DNA from: Candidatus Omnitrophota bacterium
Lineage (GTDB): Bacteria; Omnitrophota; Gorgyraeia; Duberdicusellales; 4484-171
Assembly: GCA_043823745.1 (NCBI GenBank)
Contig: JBDRAN010000028.1
Location: 3,116-67,115 of the forward strand
DNA: 64,000 bases
Direction of reading: 5' to 3'
A program made the translations under genes and the position numbers. Within the stretch, counting starts at the first letter, position 1. Each line of letters starts with the position of its first letter. Shown piece by piece: positions 3,501 through 57,665 of the stretch. The notes below the pieces were generated by a model. The model was not told where the DNA came from. It ran no database searches and worked only from the letters and a program-made list of their open reading frames with translations.

Positions 3501-5192
3501 ATGAATATCCTCAAAAGAAAAATTTCGAAACATAGTGTAGTCATCGGGCTTATCATCGCCGCTGGTTTTCTGTTGCGTTTTCGTCAATATTTCTATAACA
3601 AGTCGCTATGGCTTGATGAAGCTTCTTTGGCGCTCAACATCATACACAGGCCGTGGTGGCAACTTTTTAAACCTCTTGATTATCTTCAGGGTGCCCCTGT
3701 CGGATTTTTACTCATAGAAAAGTTCTTTATCTACCTCTTCGGTAGTGGCGAGTATGTGTTGCGGCTCTTCCCTTTCATAAGCGCTCTTGCAGCACTTTTT
3801 CTTTTTTTTAATGTTGCGCGTTTTCTGCTTGATCGCGATGCGCTTGTTCTCGCAATGACTTTAATGAGTTTTTCGGGTGTCCTCATTTATTATTCCTCCG
3901 AGTGTAAGCAGTATTCCTCAGATGTTTTTTTAGCTTTGATAGTCCTAAATATTTTTTTGCGCCCGTACCGGCCTATGATATCAGTCGTTCGCGCGTTAGC
4001 CTTGGGGCTTATGTGTGCGGTATTTATTTTCATTTCGCATCCGATATTTTTTGTTTTGCTTGGTATAGCGGTGGTTAACGTTGGTTCGTGCATACGAGAG
4101 AAAAAGTGGCTTACGATGGCCGGTTTGTTGTCTGTTTTTGTGTTTGGATTGATAAGTTTTGTGATCGCTTATTTTGTTTCGCTGCGTTCTTTGACGATGA
4201 CACAACCGCTCGTGGGCTGGAGCAGGGGGTTTGTGCCGCACCTTTCTTTTTCCCTACGTAGCTTACAATCGCTTACACAATGGTTTCAGGGTAATGACAG
4301 TCTTGGTTTTTTGATAGACGTTCGCCCCGCATGGGTGAGCCTGGGGCTTCTTGTAATCGGTAGTTACTCGATGTTCCGTGAGAGAAGACGAGATTTTTTA
4401 ATTCTCGGGCTGCCGGTGTTTTTTGTTTTCGTGGCATCAGTATTCCATAAATATCCGTTTTATCAGAGGATGCTCTTGTTCCTGATTCCATCAGTACTCA
4501 TTATATTATCAAAAGGTTTCTCAGAATTGCTTCGATTTCTTCCAAGTAACAAAGTAAAATCGATACTTATCATCTTATGCATGTGTTTTCTGCTCTTTGT
4601 TCCTGTTGTTAAGGCCATGATATCCGGTTTCTTTCCGTATGGGGCTGAGTCTCTGAAGCCGGTCCTTTCGTATGTTAGTTCGTATGCTCGCTCTTTTCCA
4701 AGGACTAATCCAACGGTCTATCTTTCGAACCGTGCGGTATCCGCGTTTCAATACTATGCCCCGCGCTATGGGCTTGATAAGAATAGATGTATTGTGATGC
4801 CGTATAAACCATCGCGCGCGGAATTTAAAAAGGATATGAATCGATTGGTAGGCACAAAAAAAGTTTGGGTGATTGCCTCGGGTATTTCTGAAGCTCGGCA
4901 GATAGAGGAAGAAAGCTTCTACCTCGGTTATCTGGATCGTAAGGGGCCGCGCCTGAGGGCTTTTAAATGTAATGATGCATCAGCCTACCTGTATGATTTA
5001 AGCCGTCCGCGTCGTGCGGGTACCAATTCTGTTCCAGCGAAAACCTTAAAAGTTGAGGGTAGCGGAAAGTATGTTCGGCGGGCGACACGGGCTCTTTGGT
5101 TCATCGAACGGGTGACCGGCTCGCGCTGTGTGCCGTGCCTTCTTATTCTTGAGCGATTTTTTAATGCGTTGCGCGCGTACGTATACAGTTAG
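3501..5192 (+). CDS. GT39 / ArnT-PMT-like polytopic membrane glycosyltransferase.
   Basis: It is 563 aa with many TM helices. An early loop carries WLDEA, and the C-terminal domain is soluble, which is typical of undecaprenyl/dolichyl-phosphate-sugar dependent glycosyltransferases. Confidence 0.55.
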   Translation: MNILKRKISKHSVVIGLIIAAGFLLRFRQYFYNKSLWLDEASLALNIIHRPWWQLFKPLDYLQGAPVGFLLIEKFFIYLFGSGEYVLRLFPFISALAALFLFFNVARFLLDRDALVLAMTLMSFSGVLIYYSSECKQYSSDVFLALIVLNIFLRPYRPMISVVRALALGLMCAVFIFISHPIFFVLLGIAVVNVGSCIREKKWLTMAGLLSVFVFGLISFVIAYFVSLRSLTMTQPLVGWSRGFVPHLSFSLRSLQSLTQWFQGNDSLGFLIDVRPAWVSLGLLVIGSYSMFRERRRDFLILGLPVFFVFVASVFHKYPFYQRMLLFLIPSVLIILSKGFSELLRFLPSNKVKSILIILCMCFLLFVPVVKAMISGFFPYGAESLKPVLSYVSSYARSFPRTNPTVYLSNRAVSAFQYYAPRYGLDKNRCIVMPYKPSRAEFKKDMNRLVGTKKVWVIASGISEARQIEEESFYLGYLDRKGPRLRAFKCNDASAYLYDLSRPRRAGTNSVPAKTLKVEGSGKYVRRATRALWFIERVTGSRCVPCLLILERFFNALRAYVYS

Positions 5193-17595: not shown

Positions 17596-17680
17596 GAAGG
17601 CGTATTGAGTACAGAGTATTGAGTATTGTGCAGGGAATAGAAATAATATTTAGTAAACTCAATACCCAATACTCGATACT
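17596..17680. repeat. Palindromic repeat family A, copy A1 (AGTATTGAGTA arms, with the core AAACTCAATACCCAATACTC).
   Basis: The inverted arms GTATTGAGTA...GAGTATTGAGTATTG and CAATACCCAATACTCGATAC are visible directly. The same 20-mer occurs at about 36335 and about 42892. Confidence 0.6.
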
Positions 17681-21387: not shown

Positions 21388-21403
21388 AGTATAGTAGTTA
21401 ACG

Positions 21404-21600
21404 CTAATTAACGCTAATTGGAAACGCTAATTTACGCGAATCAAACGCGAATTCTCGCGAATAAATTGTCCTACGTCCAAGTGAGCCTGGCGCTCCTGCG
21501 CCGTGCGAACGAACGTCCCACGTCCTACGTCCCACATTCCCACACGTCCCAGCGTACGCTGACGTTCCACGCTTACATTTTATACTGGATATCCTAACAT
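21404..21600. repeat. Short direct-repeat region (AACGCTAATT x3, CGCGAAT x3, GTCCCACGTCC x2) in the divergent ispH/DUF134 promoter region. It is related to the repeats at 17690-17760.
   Basis: The repeats are visible in the sequence. Confidence 0.35.
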
Positions 21601-30185: not shown

Positions 30186-30313
30186 TAGCGTGGAGCGTAG
30201 AGCGTTTGCTACAATTTAGCGTAGAGCGTGGAGCGTTTAGCGTAGAGCAAAAAATACTTAAAGTTCTACGTTCCCTCTTCCTATACGCTCTCCGCTATCC
30301 GCTCTACGCTTAT
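30186..30313. repeat. Palindromic repeat family B, copy B1 (TAGCGTAGAGCG / CGCTCTACGCT arms).
   Basis: The left arm is TTTAGCGTGGAGCGTAGAGCG...TTTAGCGTAGAGCGTGGAGCGTTTAGCGTAGAGC and the right arm is CGCTCTCCGCTATCCGCTCTACGCT. Confidence 0.6.
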
Positions 30314-33877: not shown

Positions 33878-33950
33878 AAAATTACTAATGACTGAGCATA
33901 AATTACTAAATAAAAATATTTCGTAATTATAATTTAGTAATTAGTAATTT
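33878..33950. repeat. Inverted-repeat family C, copy C1 (AAATTACTAAT ... TTAGTAATTAGTAATT).
   Basis: It is visible in the sequence, and a second copy lies at 39425-39495. Confidence 0.45.
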
Positions 33951-34018: not shown

Positions 34019-34747
34019 GTGTCGTATACGATCCTTTTGGTTGATGATGATAAAGAGTTCAGGTCGGTGTTTAAAAAATACCTGGAGGGGTACCGGATTA
34101 TTGAAACCGATAGCGGCGCTGCGGCGCTTGCTATCTTAAAGAAACCCAACGATATTGATTTGGTGATACTTGATGTGGTAATGCCCGGCCTGCAGGGGAT
34201 CGATGTGTTGCGGGAAATTCGCAAGGTAAACGAAAAGTTGAGCGTTATCATGCTGACCGCATATGGTTCTAAAGATGTAGCGGTCGAGGCGCTGCGCAGC
34301 CACGCCGACGATTTTATCGAGAAGGGTATGTCCATCAGTGAGATAGAGAGGGTTATCACCAGGGTTATGGAGGCTCATGGCATTTCCGCGGGCATTCATG
34401 GCAACGGCCTCGCTGCGAAAATCGAAAAAGCAAAACGGTATGCCGAAATAAACTGTTATAAAAAATTTTCTTTACGGGATGCTGCCGAGAGCGTATGTTT
34501 GAGCCCGAAATATTTAAGCCGCGTGTTTAAGGAGTATGCAGGTACCGGATTTAGCGCGTATCGCCTGGCTATAAAGATAAAGGAAGCTCGCCGCCTTCTT
34601 GCGCATGCGACTTGTAACGTGAGTCAGATTGCCGATAAGCTAGGATATAAAAATGTAGAATCTTTTATTCGTCAGTTCAAGAAAATGACCGGTACCACCC
34701 CTTCGGTGTTCCGCAAGAGTAAAATCAAAAAAACTAAGCGCTCATGA
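34019..34747 (+). CDS. Response regulator with an AraC-type HTH output (REC + HTH_AraC).
   Basis: It has ILLVDDDKEFRSVF...LVILDVVMPG, and the C-terminus carries the AraC signature IADKLGYKNVESFIRQFKKMTG. Confidence 0.8.
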   Translation: MSYTILLVDDDKEFRSVFKKYLEGYRIIETDSGAAALAILKKPNDIDLVILDVVMPGLQGIDVLREIRKVNEKLSVIMLTAYGSKDVAVEALRSHADDFIEKGMSISEIERVITRVMEAHGISAGIHGNGLAAKIEKAKRYAEINCYKKFSLRDAAESVCLSPKYLSRVFKEYAGTGFSAYRLAIKIKEARRLLAHATCNVSQIADKLGYKNVESFIRQFKKMTGTTPSVFRKSKIKKTKRS

Positions 34748-35270
34748 CCGCGAACACAGGGACACGAACGAAAATAAAAAATCCCAAATCTCAAACTCAA
34801 AACAAATTCCAATTATCAAAACTATCCGCCGAAGGCGAGACCTCGCCAGCTATCGCTGACGGGCAATGTTCTAAACGGGATCATTTTTTGTCAGGCCCTT
34901 CCTTTAGTCGGAACAGGGAAGCCTACCCTTTAGGGTTATTGGATAATTGGAGTTTGGAACTTATTTATGTTTTTCCGCCCCTTTGGGCGAGATCTCGCCT
35001 ATATACACTAATTAATGTGGCGGAGGTGCTTGCCATTTGGAATTTTTTACACCCCTCGTCCGAGCGTATGCGGCCGCACGTCGTCGGATAACGAGCTTGT
35101 ATCCTGACGTTTTGGTGTCTACCGCCTCACGCTCCCCAAAAGCTCGCTGCTGAGTGCTTAGAGATAGTAGAAAAAAGTCAATAAAAAGTGGAAAACCCCT
35201 CTTTACCGGTTATGGGTAAGTTAGTAATATTTATATACTTAATTATAGTAGCGGATAGTGGTTACTGGAG

Positions 35271-35352
35271 AAAGTATTGAGTATCGAGTACAGAGCATTA
35301 AGTACGTAGTTCTAAAGCGCAACACTCAATACGCAATGCTCAATACGAAAGC
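35271..35352. repeat. Family A-related partial copy A4 (AGTATTGAGTATCGAGTACAGAGC ... ACTCAATACGCAATGCTCAATACG).
   Basis: It is visible in the sequence. Confidence 0.45.
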
Positions 35353-35505
35353 GGAATAGTTTGTGGCGTAAGGCTAACGTGGCGCGCAAGGCGCCATGTA
35401 TTCCAAAAAAATCCGTGGCTTGGGCTTTACGCCACCTGTCTTTATATAGAGATTCCAGAGATCAGGAAAAGATTACCTGTAATCATTTTTTTAATCGCTG
35501 TAATC

Positions 35506-35712
35506 TTGAGCAATATTCATTATACTAAAATGGTACAAGTTCAATGTAAAAAATGTGGCGAGATACGCTTTACTGCCTATCCGCAGATATCGGTATGCGT
35601 TTGTGGCGGGAGATTTAAAGCTATTGATTTCGACCGCCAGGACAAGGAATGCCCTGCGGAGAAAAAATGCCAACACTTGATTGATTCCTTAGAGTACCTA
35701 CGGGAAACGTAA
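35506..35712 (+). CDS. Putative small zinc-ribbon protein (CKKCG...CVCGG).
   Basis: It is a 68-aa ORF with two CxxC/CxC pairs. The RBS is weak, and it is the only ORF in a 1.1 kb gap. Confidence 0.3.
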   Translation: MSNIHYTKMVQVQCKKCGEIRFTAYPQISVCVCGGRFKAIDFDRQDKECPAEKKCQHLIDSLEYLRET

Positions 35713-35884
35713 CACGTAGCCAACCGCTCCCGCGAGTGCAAAAATTCGCTTTCTTTTTGACGCAAGCGTGTATACAATAGAAATATTATATGACTCATGC
35801 GTGGCCGATGATGCGGTTCTTGAGGCAATTCTTTTCCTGTAGGGAGGGGTTGCCTTTTTTTATTGATGGATATGTAATTGCGCA

Positions 35885-36262
35885 ATGAAGAAAACGATCC
35901 TCATAGTCGATGATGATCCGGCGATGCATGAAGTATATGGTGATATGTTTCGGCAATCAGACCGGTACCAGCTTGCGCGCGCCTATAGCGTCGAGGAGGC
36001 TTTGAAGGGATTGAAAACTCGGCGCATTGACCTGATACTGCTTGATATCATCATGGAACCGATACCGGGCTCCTATCTGTATCTTAAAGTAGCGCGGGAT
36101 AAAAAAATACAAAACGAGAAAATACCTATCATCGTCGTCAGCGTTCTTAAAGAACATGAGCTTGGCTCTTTGGGAAAACTCGACAACCTTATATTTTTTG
36201 CCAAGCCCTTTAAGAAAGAGGCGTTGATGGGGAAGATTGAGGAATTGTTGGGAAGCGATTAG
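35885..36262 (+). CDS. Stand-alone single-domain response regulator, paralogous to the one at 33455.
   Basis: It has ILIVDDDPAMHEVYGDMF...LILLDIIMEP. Confidence 0.8.
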   Translation: MKKTILIVDDDPAMHEVYGDMFRQSDRYQLARAYSVEEALKGLKTRRIDLILLDIIMEPIPGSYLYLKVARDKKIQNEKIPIIVVSVLKEHELGSLGKLDNLIFFAKPFKKEALMGKIEELLGSD

Positions 36263-36264
36263 CA

Positions 36265-36368
36265 AAAAGTATTGAGTATCGAGTATAGAGCATCGAGCAT
36301 TGAACAGGGAATAAAAAATGAGTATTTAATAAACTCAATACCCAATACTCACTGCACAATACGTAATA
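36265..36368. repeat. Repeat family A, copy A2.
   Basis: The sequence reads AAAAGTATTGAGTATCGAGTATAGAGCATCGAGC...AAACTCAATACCCAATACTCACTGCACAATACG. Confidence 0.6.
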
Positions 36369-36379
36369 AGGGGGGGAAT

Positions 36380-36745
36380 ATGCTTAAGAAAAAAATATTA
36401 GTTGTTGATGATGAACGTGATTTTCTTAATTTAATACGCATACGGCTTGAGTCAAGCAAATACGAAGTTATTACTGCTTGCGACGGCGTCGATGCGCTCT
36501 TAAAATTTGATGAATGCCCGCCGGACGCAGTCATGCTCGATATTCTCATGCCCAACATGGACGGCCTGGAAGTTTTAAAGAAAATAAGAGCCAAGGACAA
36601 AAATATCCCTATCTTCATCATTACCGCGTTTTCTAATGAGGAGCGACTGAAGCTTGCCAAGGAATTAAATGTTAACGGTTTCATGGATAAAACCGCCGAT
36701 TTAAAAACCGAAATAGAGCATGTGGCGGAAGCGCTCGGGAAATAG
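36380..36745 (+). CDS. Stand-alone single-domain response regulator.
   Basis: It has ILVVDDERDFLNLI...AVMLDILMPNMDG. Its stop codon TAG is the first TAG of the family-B repeat. Confidence 0.8.
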   Translation: MLKKKILVVDDERDFLNLIRIRLESSKYEVITACDGVDALLKFDECPPDAVMLDILMPNMDGLEVLKKIRAKDKNIPIFIITAFSNEERLKLAKELNVNGFMDKTADLKTEIEHVAEALGK

Positions 36746-36774
36746 CGTAGAGCGGATAGCGTAGAGCGTAGAGG
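36742..36774. repeat. Family B left-arm copy, B2 (ATAGCGTAGAGCGGATAGCGTAGAGCGTAGAGG).
   Basis: It is visible in the sequence. Confidence 0.5.
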
Positions 36775-36811
36775 AAGAAAAATATACAGGAATAGCGCAA
36801 AAGGAAAGAAA

Positions 36812-37162
36812 ATGGTAACAAAGAGCTTCAAAGATCTGATAGTTTGGCAGAAAGCATATGCTTTAACTATAGAGATTTATAAGGTGGCTAGTCATTTCCC
36901 TGCTGTTGAGTTGTATGGCTTGCGGCAACAGATGTGTCGTGCCGCAATATCCATACCGTCCAATATCGCTGAAGGATATGGCCGTTCGTATCGTAAGGAA
37001 TATTCACAATTTCTCTCTATAGCCTATGGGTCCTTGTGCGAGCTGGAAACGCAGTATTTATTAGCACTTGAATTTGGTTATCTCAAAAAAACCGAAACGA
37101 TTGAACTTTTAATAAAAGAAGTGGGAAGTATGCTTTATTGTATGATAAATCCCAGAAAATAG
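36812..37162 (+). CDS. Four-helix-bundle protein of the TIGR02436 / 23S rRNA intervening-sequence protein type.
   Basis: It has WQKAYALTIEIYKVASHFP...ISIPSNIAEGYGR...ELETQ, and the RBS is AAAGGAAAG. Confidence 0.75.
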   Translation: MVTKSFKDLIVWQKAYALTIEIYKVASHFPAVELYGLRQQMCRAAISIPSNIAEGYGRSYRKEYSQFLSIAYGSLCELETQYLLALEFGYLKKTETIELLIKEVGSMLYCMINPRK

Positions 37163-37165
37163 GAG

Positions 37166-37252
37166 AAAGCGGAGAGCGTAGAGAAAGAAGGAGCGTAGAA
37201 TTTTACATTATTTATTTTCCCCTCTACGCTATCCGCTCCACGCTCTACGCTA
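37166..37252. repeat. Family B, copy B3: a complete hairpin element directly downstream of the four-helix-bundle gene.
   Basis: The left arm is GCGGAGAGCGTAGAGAAAGAAGGAGCGTAGAA. The loop is TTTTACATTATTTATTTTC. The right arm is CCCTCTACGCTATCCGCTCCACGCTCTACGCTAG. Confidence 0.6.
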
Positions 37253-37268
37253 GAAAAAAGGAGGATCA

Positions 37269-37658
37269 ATGGATGCCAAGAAAAAAGTTTTGATTATTGA
37301 CGATGAAGAAAATTTTACCAAAATCATCAAACTGAACCTTGAGGCAACGGGAAAATACGATGTCTTTGTCGAGAACGATTCAATCCGGGGCTTGAGCAGT
37401 GCAAAAAAAAATATGCCTGACGTGATACTACTCGATATTCTTATGCCTAAGATTGACGGGTTTGAGCTTTTGCGTGCACTTAAGAAAGATATGCCTACAA
37501 TCGCGATCCCGGTAATTATGCTTACCGCGGTAATGGCCGATGAAGCAAAGGCTATGGCCGCCCGGTTGTATGATGAGTCGTATATGGTGAAGCCGGTTGC
37601 CGCCGAGGTGCTTGAGAAAGAAATAGAGAGAGTGTTGGCGCGCCACAGTGGTAATTAG
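37269..37658 (+). CDS. Stand-alone single-domain response regulator.
   Basis: It has VLIIDDEENFTKII...VILLDILMPKIDG. Confidence 0.8.
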   Translation: MDAKKKVLIIDDEENFTKIIKLNLEATGKYDVFVENDSIRGLSSAKKNMPDVILLDILMPKIDGFELLRALKKDMPTIAIPVIMLTAVMADEAKAMAARLYDESYMVKPVAAEVLEKEIERVLARHSGN

Positions 37659-37843
37659 GTCCTTTCATCGTCTATTCTTCGTAGTCCGTTCCCTTCGGGG
37701 ATCCCCTGACGGGGAGGCTTCGCACGGCTCCGCACTCGTTAGTCGTCCGTGACGGAATACGAACGAGTGCATAGCCTGCCGCAGGGCACGGGATACGGAA
37801 GACGGTCGACGAGATAATTATTTATTAAAGAAAGGAGCCTGCT

Positions 37844-39349
37844 ATGTTTGATTCCCAAAGTCTAAGCGCGCAACCCGAAATAATACATGTTTTACTTATT
37901 GAAGATAATCCCGGAGACGTGCGGTTGTTCAAAGAGTTGTTATCGGAGATTCCCGAGACCCCGTTTACCGTAGAATGCGTCAGCCGGCTCGGCGAGGCTT
38001 TAGCGCGCCTTGAAAAAAGGGGTATTGACGTCATTGTCGTTGATCTCGGCCTTCCTGATAGCAAGGGTATTGACACATTTAGGAGTATTTATACTACCGC
38101 GCCTCGCGTGCCGATCGTGGTTGTTACGGGAATGCATGGTCAAGCTTTGAGCGTTTTGGCTCAGGGCGCCCAGGATTATCTTATCAAAGGAAACGTCGAC
38201 GCTGCCATTATATCGCGGACATTGCGATATGCGATTGAGCGTAACAAGCTTAAAACCGCGTATGAGGATTTAGTGAATACGATCACGCATGAGTTGCGCA
38301 TCCCCCTTGGTATTGTACGGGAGGGGGTTTCCCAGATTTGCGATGGCCTGCACGGGGAGATATCCGAAAAAAGCAAAGAATTTCTGGTGCTGGCAATCCA
38401 CAATATCGACAGGCTCAAGCGGCTTATCGATAATCTTTTAGGTGTCGCCAAGCTCGATGCGGGAAAGGTGAAGTTACATAAGTCCATTTTTGATATAACC
38501 GAGCTGGCGCGCGAAATGAGCGCTATTTTTTCAACTCGTGTACAGGGGCGTGACGTGGAGTTGCGTTGTCGTTTTCCCGGCAGCGTCATTAACGTGTATG
38601 CCGATCGGGATAAGATCGTGGAAGTGTTTACCAACCTGATCGGAAACGCGCTTAAGTTTACCGAACGGGGCCTCATCGAGATTGTGCTTCTTGAGAAAGA
38701 GGATTATGTCGCCTGCGCGGTGCGTGATACCGGTTACGGTATTCCTGCGGAACACCTGCCGCATATCTTCGATAAATTTCAGCAATTCTCGCGTAAAGTA
38801 GCTTTCGGGGAAAAAGGTACCGGCCTTGGCCTTGCGATCGTGAAGGGTATTCTTGAGTTGCACGATGAAGCAATCGACGTAGAAAGCGCGATTGGAGCCG
38901 GCACAACGTTTACGTTTACGCTCCATAAGCATCTGGCGCAGCCGCCCTGCAAGGAGCACATTGATGCGTGCATTGCGCAGGCTGGGCTCAAAAACGTGTC
39001 TTTTTCTTTGATCGCGGTCTCGGGCATTAATCTGGAGACATTAAAACACGTTGCGACGCCGGAATCGGCAACGCAAATCATGACGCAGGTACACGCAATA
39101 TTTAAAAGTAGCCTGCGTCGTGCCGAGGATAGCGTTTTTGATTTAACGAGTGAGATACTCGTGCTTTTGATTGACTGTGACAAAGAGGGTGTTGGGGTGG
39201 TTAAGTCCCGGCTTGCCCAACAATTATTCAATTATCTGGCGAGCAACGGATTTTCTGATAGAATATATCTTAAATTTGGCTGTGTCACCTATCCCGATGA
39301 TGCGACCAGCCGGGAAGGGTTACTCGCTGCGGTAATATCGCAACTGTAG
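37844..39349 (+). CDS. Hybrid histidine kinase: REC, HisKA, HATPase_c, and a C-terminal degenerate GGDEF-like domain.
   Basis: The REC domain has VLLIEDNPGDVRLF..VIVVDLGLPD. The H-box is ITHELRIPLG and the G-box is GTGLGLAIVKGI. In the C-terminal roughly 150 aa the GG(D/E)EF motif is replaced by DLTSE, while the RAED (RxxD) I-site is kept. Confidence 0.8.
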   Translation: MFDSQSLSAQPEIIHVLLIEDNPGDVRLFKELLSEIPETPFTVECVSRLGEALARLEKRGIDVIVVDLGLPDSKGIDTFRSIYTTAPRVPIVVVTGMHGQALSVLAQGAQDYLIKGNVDAAIISRTLRYAIERNKLKTAYEDLVNTITHELRIPLGIVREGVSQICDGLHGEISEKSKEFLVLAIHNIDRLKRLIDNLLGVAKLDAGKVKLHKSIFDITELAREMSAIFSTRVQGRDVELRCRFPGSVINVYADRDKIVEVFTNLIGNALKFTERGLIEIVLLEKEDYVACAVRDTGYGIPAEHLPHIFDKFQQFSRKVAFGEKGTGLGLAIVKGILELHDEAIDVESAIGAGTTFTFTLHKHLAQPPCKEHIDACIAQAGLKNVSFSLIAVSGINLETLKHVATPESATQIMTQVHAIFKSSLRRAEDSVFDLTSEILVLLIDCDKEGVGVVKSRLAQQLFNYLASNGFSDRIYLKFGCVTYPDDATSREGLLAAVISQL

Positions 39350-39424: not shown

Positions 39425-39495
39425 TAAATTACTAATTGCTAAATTCTAATGACGAACCATTTCCTTTTAGTAATTCGTGCTTAGTAATTAGTGAT
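39425..39495. repeat. Inverted-repeat family C, copy C2.
   Basis: It has AAATTACTAATTGCTAAATTC...TTTTAGTAATTCGTGCTTAGTAATTAGTGATT. Confidence 0.45.
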
Positions 39496-40552: not shown

Positions 40553-40722
40553 CGTAGAGTCCCCTTTGGGGGAGGCTTCGCACCGTATAGCGTAGAGCGT
40601 AGAGGAAGAGAGGGTAAGTGTGAGAGGCGTAGTTTTAGAAATTTTTCTTTATTTTCTACTCTACGCTAAACGCTCCACGCTCTACGCTAAATCGTAGCAA
40701 ACGTTCTACGCTCCACGCTAGG
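40550..40722. repeat. Family B, copy B4: a long hairpin element that includes the 34-mer GTCCCCTTTGGGGGAGGCTTCGCACCGTATAGCG.
   Basis: The left arm is TAGCGTAGAGCGTAGAGGAAG. The loop is AT-rich. The right arm is ACTCTACGCTAAACGCTCCACGCTCTACGCTAAATCGTAGCAAACGTTCTACGCTCCACGCTA. Confidence 0.6.
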
Positions 40723-40739
40723 ATATGGATAACTAAATT

Positions 40740-42818
40740 ATGCTTAACCTAAAATTCGGAATCAGGCAGAAAGTAATCGTGATGATTTTTATTTCTGTTT
40801 TTGCCGCGGTTATCCTGACGGCAGGATTTTATTACTTTCTTGGGTACCGGTTCCAGGAGAAGGTTATGAGCGCGCAGTATTACCGTAGCGCCCAGATTCT
40901 TTCGCAAGCGTTAGGGAAAATGTTTAACGACCAGATGCAGTTTATACGAGTACAGGTGGCTACGTACCCATGGAACGACGACTTGGTTCGGGTCAATGCG
41001 CAGTATCAGGGTCGCGCGCAGGAATCGATTGTTGCCGAGCTTATGGAGAAAGATCAACATTGGATAGCGGATCAAGGCCAGGATGGAATCATCCGGCAAT
41101 ATTTGCAAAATCCCGCAAGCGAAAAGCTTGTGCGCCTGGTAGCTGCCGACCCTAAAATTGCGGAAATCTTTATTACCGATGCGTACGGTGGCCTAGTGGC
41201 TGCCTCGGGAAGAACTTCAGATTTTTATCAGGCGGACGAACAGTGGTGGCAGGACGGCTATGCCGGAGGAGCCGGGCGCGATTGCGTCGGTGACGTCGAG
41301 TATGACGCGTCCGCGAAGACCTTGAGTATTCCGTTTATAACGCCGGTGCGCGATGAAAAGGGGAACGTCTCAGGGGTTTGCAAGGCAGTGCTTAACCTTG
41401 AGGCGTTCCTTGAACCCCTCTCAAGCCTTTCGATCGGAAAAACCGGTCACGCCGCGTTGCTCAACGCAAACGGGCAGATCATTTTTCATCAGGGTATTAC
41501 CCCGTTAAGCCGGTTATTTTCCGACCGGAAAGATTTCAGCGTTTTCCTTGCGGAGCAACAAAAGTTCTCAATAGCGCCCTTGTCTCACGAGCAGAACGAA
41601 CGAAGGTTTTTCGTTAGCGTGCCTTTTATCTCGTCGTTATTCGCGGACAAACAAATGCGGTGGTATGTAGTGATTGAGCAGGCCGCGTCTGAGGTATTTG
41701 CACCGCTTGTTGAGCTGAACATCAAGCTTATGGCTGTTGCCGGGGTTACGCTTATTCTGATGCTGCCTTTGGGGTTTTTATTGGGGGGTGTTTTTTCCCG
41801 GCCTATCCTCGCTCTCCATAAGGCGATCACTAAAATTACCGAAGGTGTATGGGATTATGCGGTTGAGATTAAAAGCGGAGACGAGGTTGAACAATTTGCC
41901 GAAGCGTTTAAGAAAATGATTTTAACGACACGTAATAAACAGCGGGAGCTGATTGCCGCAAAAAATGAGCTTGAAGCGTTGGCAAAAAGCCTTGAAGATA
42001 AGGTCCGGGAGCGTACGGGGGAGCTTGAGCGTGTTAATAAGGCGAGCCTTAATATTCTTGAAGATCTGACCGAAGCGAAAAGAAATTTAAGCAAGTATTC
42101 CAAGGATCTTAAGGAAGCGATCATTGTTAAGTCAGACTTTACGTCTATGGTTTCTCATGAGTTACGCACGCCCCTGACCGCGATCAAAGAAGGTATTTCG
42201 ATCGTGCTTGACGGCACAACCGGGCAGCTCAACAAAGACCAGGAGAACTTTCTTTCGATAGCCAAAAGCAATGTTGACCGCCTCACGCGGCTCATTAACG
42301 ACATTCTTGATTTTCAGAAGCTCGAGGCGGGTAAATTAGAGTTTACGATGAAGGTGTATGACATAACCGAAGTTCTTTGGGAAGTTCAGAATACGATGGA
42401 ATCGGCGATTAAGGCGAAAAAGCTTACCTTTGCCTCTGAATTCCCCGGGAATCTGCCTGAATTGACCTTCGATCGCGATAGAATCATTCAGGTGATCATG
42501 AACCTTATTACCAACGCATGTAAGTTTACCGAACGCGGCGGCATTATCTTGCGCGCAGAACTGTTGGGTGAGTATGTTCGGGTATGCGTCGAGGATACCG
42601 GTTGTGGTGTTTCCGAGGGGGATATCCCTAAGCTTTTTCAGAAATTTACTCAACTGGAGACCGGTGTCAGCAGAAAAGTCGGCGGCACCGGGCTTGGCCT
42701 TGCGATCTCAAAACAAATTATCGACGCGCACGGCGGAAAAATTTGGCTTGAATCGGTAGCCGGCAAAGGCTCGAAGTTTTATTTTACCTTACCGATTAAG
42801 AAAGCGGATAGCGTATAG
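40740..42818 (+). CDS. Sensor histidine kinase with a periplasmic Cache-like domain, then HAMP, HisKA and HATPase_c.
   Basis: It has two TM helices flanking a periplasmic domain of about 280 aa. The H-box is VSHELRTPLTAIKEG and the G-box is GTGLGLAISKQII. It ends in KADSV, which is encoded by the repeat. Confidence 0.85.
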   Translation: MLNLKFGIRQKVIVMIFISVFAAVILTAGFYYFLGYRFQEKVMSAQYYRSAQILSQALGKMFNDQMQFIRVQVATYPWNDDLVRVNAQYQGRAQESIVAELMEKDQHWIADQGQDGIIRQYLQNPASEKLVRLVAADPKIAEIFITDAYGGLVAASGRTSDFYQADEQWWQDGYAGGAGRDCVGDVEYDASAKTLSIPFITPVRDEKGNVSGVCKAVLNLEAFLEPLSSLSIGKTGHAALLNANGQIIFHQGITPLSRLFSDRKDFSVFLAEQQKFSIAPLSHEQNERRFFVSVPFISSLFADKQMRWYVVIEQAASEVFAPLVELNIKLMAVAGVTLILMLPLGFLLGGVFSRPILALHKAITKITEGVWDYAVEIKSGDEVEQFAEAFKKMILTTRNKQRELIAAKNELEALAKSLEDKVRERTGELERVNKASLNILEDLTEAKRNLSKYSKDLKEAIIVKSDFTSMVSHELRTPLTAIKEGISIVLDGTTGQLNKDQENFLSIAKSNVDRLTRLINDILDFQKLEAGKLEFTMKVYDITEVLWEVQNTMESAIKAKKLTFASEFPGNLPELTFDRDRIIQVIMNLITNACKFTERGGIILRAELLGEYVRVCVEDTGCGVSEGDIPKLFQKFTQLETGVSRKVGGTGLGLAISKQIIDAHGGKIWLESVAGKGSKFYFTLPIKKADSV

Positions 42819-42834
42819 CGATTAGCGGATAGCA

Positions 42835-42928
42835 GGAAGTATTGGGTATAGAGTACAGAGTATTGAGTAGAGAATGAAAAATAAGGATTTATAAACTCAA
42901 TACCCAATACTCGTACACAATACGAACG
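42835..42928. repeat. Repeat family A, copy A3.
   Basis: It has GGAAGTATTGGGTATAGAGTACAGAGTATTGAGTAGAG...AAACTCAATACCCAATACTCGTACACAATACG. Confidence 0.6.
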
Positions 42929-42984
42929 CAAAAAACATCGTGATAATTGAGAGAAAGAGTGTATAATAACTCAATATTACAAGA

Positions 42985-43102
42985 AAGCGTTTAGCGGTTA
43001 GTCCCCTTTGGGGGAGGCTTCGCACCGTATAGCGAGAGAAAAAAGGAGTATAGAATTTCACATTCTTTATTTTCCGCCTCTATGCTACCCACTCTACGCT
43101 AG
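42985..43102. repeat. Family B, copy B5, which shares the 34-mer with B4.
   Basis: It has GCGTTTAGCGGTTAGTCCCCTTTGGGGGAGGCTTCGCACCGTATAGCG...CCTCTATGCTACCCACTCTACGCTAG. Confidence 0.6.
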
Positions 43103-43122
43103 ATCCCGGATGATGATAGTAA

Positions 43123-43539
43123 ATGCTTAACAATATGCCAAAATTAACTATATTGCTGGCTGATGATGAAAAAGATTTCCTGACTATGTTGGCTATGCGC
43201 CTTAAGGCGTGGGGGTATGAGGTCATCGTAGCGGAGGAAGGAGCAGAGGCAGTTAGGTTGGTACGCGATAAAAAACCCGATGTCGTTATCATTGACTATA
43301 TGATGCCTGAAATGGACGGTGTTGCGGCCTTGCGGGAGATTCGAAAAACCAATGCGGATGTGCCCGTTATTATGCTTACCGCGTATCCCGATAAACATTC
43401 TATCAAGGGGGCTGAAACGTTGGATGTTCTCGCGTATATACCTAAAGTGAGCGCTCATTCCGACACACAAGCGCTCCTGCGATCAGCGCTGCGTATGGCA
43501 GAGAGGGCGATCGGCAAAGGGAAAGCGGATAGCGTTTAG
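43123..43539 (+). CDS. Stand-alone single-domain response regulator.
   Basis: It has ILLADDEKDFLTML...VVIIDYMMPEMDG. It ends in KADSV plus a TAG supplied by a family-B repeat. Confidence 0.8.
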   Translation: MLNNMPKLTILLADDEKDFLTMLAMRLKAWGYEVIVAEEGAEAVRLVRDKKPDVVIIDYMMPEMDGVAALREIRKTNADVPVIMLTAYPDKHSIKGAETLDVLAYIPKVSAHSDTQALLRSALRMAERAIGKGKADSV

Positions 43540-43633
43540 CGGATAGCGCAGAGCGTAGAGGAAACGGAGAGTTTAGAAAATACTGTTCTTTTTATTCTCC
43601 ACTCTACGCTAAACGCTCCACGCTCTACGCTAG
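43524..43633. repeat. Family B, copy B6, which shares a 31-mer, ACTCTACGCTAAACGCTCCACGCTCTACGCTA, with B4.
   Basis: It has AAAGCGGATAGCGTTTAGCGGATAGCGCAGAGCGTAGAGGAAACGG...loop...ACTCTACGCTAAACGCTCCACGCTCTACGCTAG. Confidence 0.6.
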
Positions 43634-57419: not shown

Positions 57420-57665
57420 ATAAGCTCATGAGTGCATGGAAGCGATTTACGTCTATCGGTTGGGGTTGCGAGGCTCGTTTCGGTTACGTTAAACGTCAAT
57501 CGGCTTTATTGGTAAGATATTTTTTACGCAACCTTTTACTTACGTATGACGTAACGAGCTGCACACCAGTGCGTCCCGGTGAGGGGCTGCACACCAGTGC
57601 GTTCCGTAAGGGGCTTTGCACCCCCCTTCGGGGAGGCTACGCACGGCTTCGCACCGGTTAGCGTA
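57420..57665. repeat. Composite intergenic repeat region: GCTCATAGCTCATAAGCTCATGAG, two copies of GCTGCACACCAGTGCGT, and CCCCTTCGGGGAGGCTACGCAC.
   Basis: It is visible in the sequence. The CCCCTT(C/T)GGGG-GAGGCTTCGCAC motif recurs at about 37688, 40560 and 43003. Confidence 0.4.

Follow-up and report, generated by a model that had tools for sequence, protein, structure and literature searches.

In a 64,000-nucleotide stretch of contig JBDRAN010000028.1 from a Candidatus Omnitrophota bacterium (GCA_043823745.1; hereafter the window), we analyzed a gene for a four-helix-bundle (4HB) protein and the heptamer repeats that flank it. The locus is probably a copy of a widespread, conserved cassette that resembles an intervening sequence (IVS): a 4HB gene between inverted arrays of three to five heptamers, co-transcribed with its surroundings and with arms suited to an RNase III-type stem. 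Elements of this kind in 23S rRNA go by the name of intervening sequences; here, as the best explanation of the data, the cassette fills the whole gap between two co-oriented response-regulator genes. Three items have gone for decades without a function or a link: (i) the S23p/4HB family, with its thousands of members and its relative Avd; (ii) heptamer tandem repeats; and (iii) 23S IVSs that bear an open reading frame (ORF). Each was already known separately, and what appears to be new is a general link between them across phyla.

The window gene encodes a PF05635 four-helix-bundle protein

A first-pass annotation of the window had read the gene as being of the TIGR02436 four-helix-bundle type, and profile scores and the predicted fold bear this out. 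In profile hidden Markov model searches, the protein matched PF05635 (23S_rRNA_IVP; E = 2.3e-36, 124.6 bits against a cutoff of 33.8) and TIGR02436 (E = 2.8e-34, 117.6 bits against a cutoff of 24). Its profile matches were confined to PF05635 and bAvd, with no Y1/HUH (TnpA_REP) transposase among them. The AlphaFold2 monomer model has four helices, with a predicted local distance difference test score (pLDDT) of 92. The top Foldseek matches of this model, by template modeling (TM) score, were 2GSC (XCC0516; TM 0.85, 42% identity) and 2RLD (BT_0352; TM 0.83), followed by Avd of diversity-generating retroelements (DGRs; 8UB7 and 4DWL, TM 0.72-0.77). 2gsc_A was also found by phmmer (E = 1e-19). 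A homopentameric toroid is known for XCC0516 and Avd. The gene is the only 4HB copy in the window, and its product ends in NPRK-TAG where relatives end in NPIR-TAA.

Inverted heptamer arrays flank 4HB genes across phyla

The association of gene and arms holds across phyla and is specific to a period of seven nucleotides. Relatives were collected by a scan of one genome per species, which found 401; the best 80 loci (given handles such as L001) were fetched, all from other genomes, and the closest relative is 73% identical to the window protein. The loci come from metagenome-assembled genomes (MAGs) labelled Omnitrophota, Planctomycetota, Atribacterota, Endomicrobiales, Patescibacteria, Bacteroidota, Acidobacteriota, and others. 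As control loci we used those fetched by a metagenome scan with the adjacent 501-aa regulator-kinase. Among the 48 relatives with at least 61% identity and enough flanking sequence, an AGCG or AGGG heptamer array was present upstream in 41, a CGCT or CCCT array downstream in 39, and both in 35; the same test at 2,000 random control-locus positions gave 19 upstream, 13 downstream, and 1 with both. A strict detector that is blind to the heptamer family (the same 4-mer at i, i+7, and i+14) reported arrays upstream of 55 of 78 genes, downstream of 49, and on both sides of 39. Within ±200 nt of 4HB genes there were 133 arrays of period 7 versus 2-8 for periods 5, 6, 8, 9, 10, and 11, and control loci hold 0.74 period-7 arrays per 10 kb.

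The arms are tied closely to the gene. At most loci, the 200 nt upstream aligned with the reverse complement of the 200 nt downstream at scores well over those of same-locus controls, and these local alignments terminate at the start codon and at the stop codon. In close relatives [TAGCGNN]n runs to 1-8 nt before the start codon, without the spacer that separates arm and ATG in the window, and the end of the ORF (...CCT ATA CGC TAA) runs into [ACGCTNN]n, the last codons (PIR*) being the first right-arm units. Because the ORF ends inside these units, the C-terminus changes with the core, from PIR* (CCTATACGCTAA) in AGCG cassettes to PKP* (CCTAAACCCTAA) in AGGG cassettes. More distant relatives have other cores, always of period 7 and always inverted. 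Matching cores are AGCG/CGCT, AGGG/CCCT (L019, L021, L022, and L033), AAGAC/GTCTT (second genes of L034 and L036), and GTCAGAA/TCTGATT (second gene of L035); further cores are AGTGGTT, AGGTNTN, AACAGGG, ACAGGTG, AGAGTCG, and TAGAATC. The core varies by subfamily, but in every case the downstream array complements the upstream array. Arrays have 3-5 units in 52 of 61 instances, and in 46 of 49 cassettes a purine-rich 5' arm is combined with a pyrimidine-rich 3' arm.

These data bear directly on whether the arrangement in the window arose by chance juxtaposition, that is, whether an ordinary small gene merely has material of heptamer family B (defined below) in both of its spacers, in a region where hairpins punctuate most spacers. 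Heptamer arrays (families A, AGTATYG; B, AGCGNNN; C, AGTAATT; and others) do occur in about three quarters of the longer spacers in the 30-44 kb region, the hairpin downstream of the gene is self-sufficient, and a solitary family-B left arm occurs without a gene further along the window. Against this stand the recurrence of the arrangement in relatives and its near absence from control positions, the restriction of the enrichment to period 7, the joint change of arm core and C-terminal codons, and the perfect inverted repetition of the 12-nt outer termini of the window arms. The complete genomes of cultured cyanobacteria and Xanthomonas also argue against assembly artefacts as the origin of the arrangement in relatives. 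We consider a chance origin very improbable.

The window copy joins a left arm to a complete family-B hairpin

Family B consists of tandem heptamers with a conserved core, AGCG, and three variable bases (AGCGTAG, AGCGGAT, AGCGTGG, and others), plus the reverse complement. The first-pass annotation had placed the gene between a family-B left arm and a complete hairpin at 37166-37252, and repeat finders, including Tandem Repeats Finder (TRF), confirmed this layout (Table 1). The distal left arm reads TAGCGTAGAGCGGATAGCGTAGAGCGTAGAGG, and its first three bases are the TAG stop codon (36743-36745) of the upstream response regulator. At the other end, a Shine-Dalgarno (SD) sequence, AAGGAGG, of the downstream response regulator falls within the 16 nt that separate the right arm from the ATG. 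TRF delimited period-7 arrays at 36744-36773 and 37222-37251. An inverted-repeat finder paired 36743-36786 with 37209-37252 (44 nt, 77% complementary) and 36744-36766 with 37222-37244 (23 nt, 96% complementary); the outermost 12 nt on each side, at the start of the distal left arm and at the end of the right arm, are exact reverse complements. With up to one mismatch, the 10-mer GCGTAGAGCG occurs 33 times in the window versus 3.6 expected (9-fold).

Table 1. Coordinates of the 4HB element, its host genes, and further family-B copies in the window
Feature	Position	Strand	Basis
Upstream host gene, single-domain response regulator	36380..36745	+	ORF list and sequence; start at MLKKKILVVDD inferred from translation
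Distal left arm, four family-B heptamer units (TAGCGTA GAGCGGA TAGCGTA GAGCGTA GAGG)	36743..36774	+	sequence, repeat finders, TRF
Purine-rich 37-nt leader, SD-like AAGGA about 8 nt before ATG	36775..36811	+	sequence
4HB protein gene, PF05635/TIGR02436, 116 aa	36812..37162	+	profile searches, AlphaFold2, Foldseek
Proximal partial left arm L' (GAGAAAGCGGAGAGCGTAGAGAAAGAAGGAGCGTAGAA), two heptamer units and purine-rich inner stem	37166..37200	+	sequence, alignment A1
T-rich loop module, as in gene-less family-B hairpins of the same genome	37201..37219	+	alignment A1
Right arm (CCTCTACGCTATCCGCTCCACGCTCTACGCTAG)	37220..37252	+	sequence, inverted-repeat finder, TRF
Downstream host gene, single-domain response regulator	37269..37658	+	ORF list and sequence
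Gene-less family-B hairpin copy	30187..30310	+	repeat finders, alignment A1, fold
Gene-less family-B hairpin copy	40584..40718	+	repeat finders, alignment A1, fold
Solitary family-B left arm overlapping the end of gene 40740-42818	42803..42833	+	TRF, sequence
Gene-less family-B hairpin copy	42985..43103	+	alignment A1
Gene-less family-B hairpin copy	43520..43632	+	repeat finders, alignment A1, fold

Long-range pairing across the gene, which the first-pass annotation had proposed as a check, is predicted. In the minimum free energy structure of 36730-37265 (-149.3 kcal/mol, z = -2.4), the outer left and outer right arms pair with each other, the inner right arm pairs with the proximal arm, and the gene stays in a large internal loop. 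The bimolecular duplex energy is -49.2 kcal/mol for the distal left arm (L) with the right arm (R) versus -33.7 kcal/mol for the proximal L' with R. No promoter- or terminator-like excess was found around the gene in 35800-38000.

The right side of the window copy departs from that of its relatives. Homology stops at ...INP, after which AGA AAA TAG, left-arm-type sequence, a loop, and a right arm stand in place of the tight right arm. A 16-nt direct repeat on both sides of the gene, GAGCGTAGAG[G/A]AAGAA, consists of arm sequence. Read most simply, the right side was swapped for a resident family-B hairpin or broken up by one, and the distal left arm retains the true outer terminus. With the usual tight right arm lost and a full hairpin in its stead, the gene would now lie in an asymmetric bulge of a composite stem.

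Cassettes in cultured organisms and in 23S rRNA

Cyanobacterial plasmids carry 4HB genes with repeats of the short tandemly repeated repetitive (STRR) type, and in five of six (L081 and L083-L086) arrays were recognized by eye on both sides. The arms are GGGAACA/TGTTCCC in Nostoc edaphicum, AAGGGAA/TTCCCTT in Geminocystis, and GTCAGGA/TCCTGAC in N. punctiforme. In Stanieria (L083), GGCAGAAGG-type units lie upstream and a CTTCTGC array downstream, and the plasmid locus of Nostoc PCC 7120 (L082) has a clear array (CTTCTGC) downstream only. Plasmid pANA02 of Anabaena sp. 90 (L084) has a cassette at 1501-1869 with CAGGTGA/TCACCTG arms; this copy lies inside a type I-D CRISPR-cas operon, flanked by cas6 and cas4, and has the orientation of the operon.

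Two published data sets contain the same pairing of gene and repeat. Xanthomonas campestris has 186 (GGGANTN)n arrays, of which 70 are arranged in convergent inverted pairs, and in the supplementary table one four-unit GGGAATC array lies 6 nt from bccP and extends over the start codon of XCC0516 (Rehm et al., PMC4692102). XCC0516 is the crystallized 4HB protein 2GSC; the overlap goes without comment in that paper, whose data thus hold the link unremarked. The 23S IVS of Coxiella has a 28-bp terminal stem in which RNase III cuts have been mapped, and its S23p ORF is immediately preceded by tandem GACAGAT heptamers whose copy number varies (Warrier et al., PMC4990558), noted there as a local curiosity only. 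Because these heptamers stand directly before the S23p ORF in a stem cut by RNase III, the analogy to the IVS is real, and rRNA IVSs and intercistronic cassettes have the same anatomy. In the literature, of which our coverage was incomplete, we found no paper linking the 4HB family to heptamer arrays, and an earlier description is possible.

The first-pass annotation had proposed an IVS-like architecture, with the ORF in the loop of a long stem. The complementary arms, the Coxiella parallel, and the 35 of 48 relatives with both arrays speak for this, but the arms are no true palindrome (see below). That the gene lies outside any rRNA operon, which it had also pointed out, is correct insofar as the window has no rRNA similarity, but is not unusual: none of the 80 relative loci is in rRNA, and blastn with the Escherichia coli rrn operon found nothing in the window and nothing adjacent to any 4HB gene. 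For this family, lying outside rRNA is therefore the rule.

Pairing between the arms

Whatever the register, about 85% of the arm positions can pair, since core always meets complementary core and only a few different variable triplets are in use. A strict palindrome was dropped as a description of the arms, as the order of the units is no more mirror-symmetric than in shuffled arrays (symmetry of variable triplets 0.66 versus 0.66 shuffled, p = 0.49, n = 38). Mismatches between the arms are asymmetric (G opposite A 52 versus A opposite G 14; T opposite C 36 versus C opposite T 7), so that the coding strand has extra purines in both arms.

Several observations weigh against a conserved, RNase III-type cassette. 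Without mirror symmetry, selection may act on the inverted arrays as such and not on a specific stem. Non-Watson-Crick positions are dominated by purine-purine clashes, and G-U (45) barely exceeds A-C (36), so there is no RNA-specific covariation signature. The z-score of the whole-element fold is only modest, and the proximal hairpin self-folds (-30.6 kcal/mol) and would form first in transcription. With arrays in most of the longer spacers nearby, local juxtaposition by itself is weak evidence. S23p of Coxiella is apparently not expressed and is decaying (PMC4990558). Finally, the divergent paralogues of L065 use a single heptamer family, which argues against strict specificity of protein to repeat.

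Several loci have more than one 4HB cassette within 10 kb: L065 (7045-7410 and 9992-10360), L035 (6874-7260 and 10001-10348), and L034 and L036 (two genes each). The paralogues in L034, L035, and L036 have different heptamer cores. The two in L065, only 31% identical to related copies, both use AGTGGTT, and a strict rule of one protein to one heptamer was rejected on this ground.

Host sites, selection, and mobility

Cassettes fill intercistronic gaps almost exactly. By heuristic gene calls for 41 two-sided cassettes, the median distance from the upstream co-oriented stop codon to the array start is 1 nt, and that from the array end to the co-oriented downstream start is 7 nt (at most 30 nt in 35 of the 41). 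Examples are dnaK-[cassette]-dnaJ in L001 and yajC-[cassette]-secD in L019-L022, L033, and L040. In four same-site groups the ratio of nonsynonymous to synonymous substitution rates (dN/dS) is 0.02-0.25, and dS is often saturated. Low dN/dS at saturated dS indicates that the protein is functional and the cassette old at those sites, and arm cores that are still perfect there imply selection or homogenization. With purifying selection and same-site persistence, gene and arms behave as one long-lived unit and not as a passenger in a jumping hairpin. The first-pass annotation had regarded the gene as cargo of a mobile or selfish hairpin; this is only one reading of the locus, and besides selection and persistence, the abutment of arms and ORF and the position of the PIR* codons within an arm stand against it.

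At the yajC-secD site, the arms are AGGG/CCCT in L019, L021, L022, and L033 but AGCG/CGCT in L040. The change affects every unit in the two arms and also the final codons of the gene, which suggests concerted evolution or an exchange of whole cassettes at this one site. Decay is also seen: L003 has an in-frame stop, L076 is in two pieces, and L017 retains only a 17-aa C-terminal relic beside a right arm. The control locus L088 contains a 4HB pseudogene (4489-4818) with TGG changed to TAG in the YWLELL motif. It has TTGCGGA-type heptamers upstream and AATCCCC downstream, and lies directly before a homologue of the window regulator-kinase gene.

The hairpin downstream of the window gene is one of five family-B copies within 14 kb that have arms and a non-heptamer loop module in common (alignment A1). 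A search for this module gave 4 matches in the window and none in the 167 other fetched loci, which marks the family-B hairpin as a genome-specific dispersed repeat, like a miniature inverted-repeat transposable element (MITE). The gene-less copies resemble MITEs in being noncoding, bounded by terminal inverted repeats, and dispersed in several copies. Family-B hairpins fold at -44 to -53 kcal/mol.

A rival reading is a mobile element at the DNA level. Its terminal or subterminal arrays would be bound by a recombinase acting in trans, or else by the 4HB protein in an architectural role; the hairpins would be MITE-like derivatives, and any RNA stem incidental. The inverted ends, with several short units that look like binding sites, resemble transposon ends; pairing is independent of register and has no bias of G-U over A-C; and the five copies have near-identical right arms and a common loop. 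Proteins that are 61-73% identical occur in MAGs labelled as several phyla at different host sites, a decayed cassette and pseudogenes exist, and one cassette is inside a cas operon with others beside transposases on plasmids. Yet no transposase or integrase is associated with the cassettes, and no target-site duplication was recognized by eye around the family-B hairpins. A scan of viral contigs gave no 4HB relatives, so no viral carrier was found, nor was an empty site (the metagenome scan with the 501-aa regulator-kinase gave only distant paralogues of at most 54% identity). Cassettes have stayed at yajC-secD, at dnaK-dnaJ, and at a Pirellulales site while synonymous sites saturated, and strict co-orientation with exact filling of the intercistronic gap is not expected of a purely DNA-level element. 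On balance, we think DNA-level mobility a rather unlikely account of the cassette.

A model for the cassette and possible roles of the protein

We propose that an IVS-like cassette of this kind would work as follows. Lacking its own promoter, it would depend on read-through transcription of the host operon. In the resulting RNA, the purine-rich 5' arm could anneal in several registers to the pyrimidine-rich 3' arm, giving a long imperfect duplex. This duplex would be cut by RNase III, by analogy with the Coxiella IVS, which would release the 4HB mRNA and separate the flanking cistrons. Gene-less family-B hairpins would be derivative, non-autonomous copies. In the most speculative step, the pentameric 4HB protein might bind the heptamer arrays. 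The one characterized relative, Avd, forms a basic pentamer, and in the DGR ribonucleoprotein this pentamer is in contact with a defined RNA element, which makes direct binding of heptamers by a 4HB pentamer plausible.

Binding could instead be the whole function. If the 4HB protein is a resident regulator, its pentamer binds heptamer units, the arrays in spacers are its regulon, its own arms serve autoregulation, and any mobility lies far back or plays no part. The strong purifying selection on the gene and its long vertical inheritance agree with this, as does the usual size of the arrays, since three to five units would fit a pentamer. The RNA sites of the ring proteins TRAP and HutP are built of core-plus-spacer units, and heptamers with a conserved 4-nt core and a variable 3-nt spacer have the same design. 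Arrays elsewhere in 4HB loci are about three times denser than in control loci and tend to belong to the family of the local cassette (36% matching versus 13% across loci). The Xanthomonas arrays, with one on the XCC0516 start codon, are likewise in keeping with a regulon, and the defined RNA element bound by Avd pentamers is in keeping with the binding itself. However, evidence for binding is confined to DGR members, and the right arm is a different single-stranded motif, which leaves the inverted symmetry unexplained unless the target is a duplex. The divergent L065 paralogues with their one heptamer family, an S23p in Coxiella that is apparently silent and decaying, and an insertion in rRNA without obvious regulatory sense also fit poorly. 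We give a purely regulatory role a low probability.

We also raise, tentatively, the possibility that 4HB proteins are the cognate partners of STRR-type heptamer arrays, in a gene-plus-repeat system analogous to that of REP doublets forming hairpins (REPINs) and REP-associated tyrosine transposases (RAYTs), with REP for repetitive extragenic palindromic, but with a different protein. Jointly with this, the pentamer may perhaps recognize the 7-nt units as RNA or DNA and maintain or seed inverted arrays and gene-less hairpins across phyla, although we are inclined to doubt this reading as a whole. If 4HB proteins and arrays were indeed cognate partners, a cassette that lands in 23S rRNA would be an IVS, the over-representation of heptamers in bacterial genomes would be explained, and the PF05635 family would gain a function.

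The 4HB family and heptamer repeats are physically coupled in a conserved, polar, and period-7-specific manner, with the IVS as the same cassette at another host site. Nostoc, Anabaena, and Xanthomonas are culturable hosts in which these questions can be taken to the bench. For annotation, "intergenic repeats" beside 4HB genes should be read as part of the element.

Comparison with known systems

The closest counterpart of the window element is the 23S IVS with an S23p ORF, as in Coxiella burnetii, Leptospira, Brucella, and Xanthomonas (PMC4990558), which has the same protein family in its loop. Both have terminal inverted repeats that can form a stem of at least 20 bp around the ORF (in the window, the 23-nt and 44-nt pairings given above); in Coxiella, as here, heptamers precede the gene, directly before the start codon and in variable copy number. 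Like the IVS, the window element probably lacks a promoter of its own and would be expressed through host transcription. Unlike the IVS, which is inserted in helix 25 or 45 of 23S rRNA, the window element lies between two protein-coding genes. It also differs in that heptamer units make up nearly the whole of its arms and in that its right arm is part of a separate complete hairpin. RNase III processing, mapped in Coxiella, is putative for the window element.

Known heptamer repeats (cyanobacterial STRR; Xanthomonas (GGGANTN)n, PMC4692102; Beggiatoaceae TAACTGA, PMC4679880) are, like the window arms, intergenic and made of 2-10 units with a conserved core and variable positions, often in convergent inverted pairs able to form stem-loops. 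The papers describing them treat them as G-quadruplex or regulatory elements with no 4HB connection (PMC4692102, PMC4679880), whereas the window family AGCGNNN brackets a gene. The REPIN-RAYT system (PMC3116915) has a single gene between inverted repeat copies and disperses the same repeat as gene-less intergenic hairpins, a layout that the window reproduces; long vertical persistence and purifying selection on the gene are further points of likeness. RAYTs, however, are HUH/Y1 transposases with a known DNA-cleaving chemistry, whereas no catalytic motif is known in the 4HB protein. Its repeats consist of tandem heptamers and not of REP palindromes, and their dispersal by the 4HB protein is putative. 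With DGR Avd, the window protein has the fold in common, but it scores only 27.2 bits with the DivGenRetAVD model, under the cutoff of 80. No reverse transcriptase or pair of template and variable repeats was seen beside the window gene, which has response regulators within 2 kb, though no dedicated search for reverse transcriptases was made.

Other heptamer repeats and minor observations

Almost all window genes are on the + strand. The 4HB cassette lies in the middle of a response-regulator run (34019-39349) that comprises one AraC-type helix-turn-helix protein, three single-domain receivers, and one receiver-histidine kinase, with heptamer hairpins between them. Rfam searches of the hairpins gave only chance microRNA-like matches, and no family covers them.

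The region 42803-43103 begins with a solitary family-B left arm; next come a complete family-A hairpin nested at 42838-42915, about 70 nt, and a complete family-B hairpin, so that the layout of the window cassette, a solitary left arm followed by a complete hairpin, is seen again without a gene. No 4HB remnant was detected between the arm at 42803 and the hairpin at 42985. The prefix GGGAGGCTTCGCACCGTATAGCG is common to this region and to the copy at 40570.

Other family-A (AGTATYG) hairpins lie at 17602-17680, 35273-35344, and 36268-36300, and family-C (AGTAATT) hairpins at 33879-33950 and 39427-39493. If the cassette model is general, families A and C would each be expected to have a 4HB gene of their own elsewhere in the genome.

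Two relatives' loci contain heptamer arrays around something other than a 4HB gene. In L008 (11432-12083), an apparently frameshifted ORF6N-domain gene (PF10543, E = 7.6e-23) lies between TAGCGTG and CGCTATC arrays; it is a single example, and possibly a second type of cargo in the same heptamer family. In L026 (2650-2790), there is no ORF between TAGCGTA and ATACGCA arrays, and the segment is GC-rich and structured-looking (GGGATCGAGCTCTAAATGTGG...CCCTCCATCGGAGGAAAGGC). Finally, the window contains two unrelated tandem repeats, a 28-nt unit present 2.4 times at 57551-57615 (GTAAGGGGCTGCACACCAGTGCGTCCCG) and a 21-nt unit present 2.9 times at 21398-21462 (AACGCTAATTAACGCGAATGCA).

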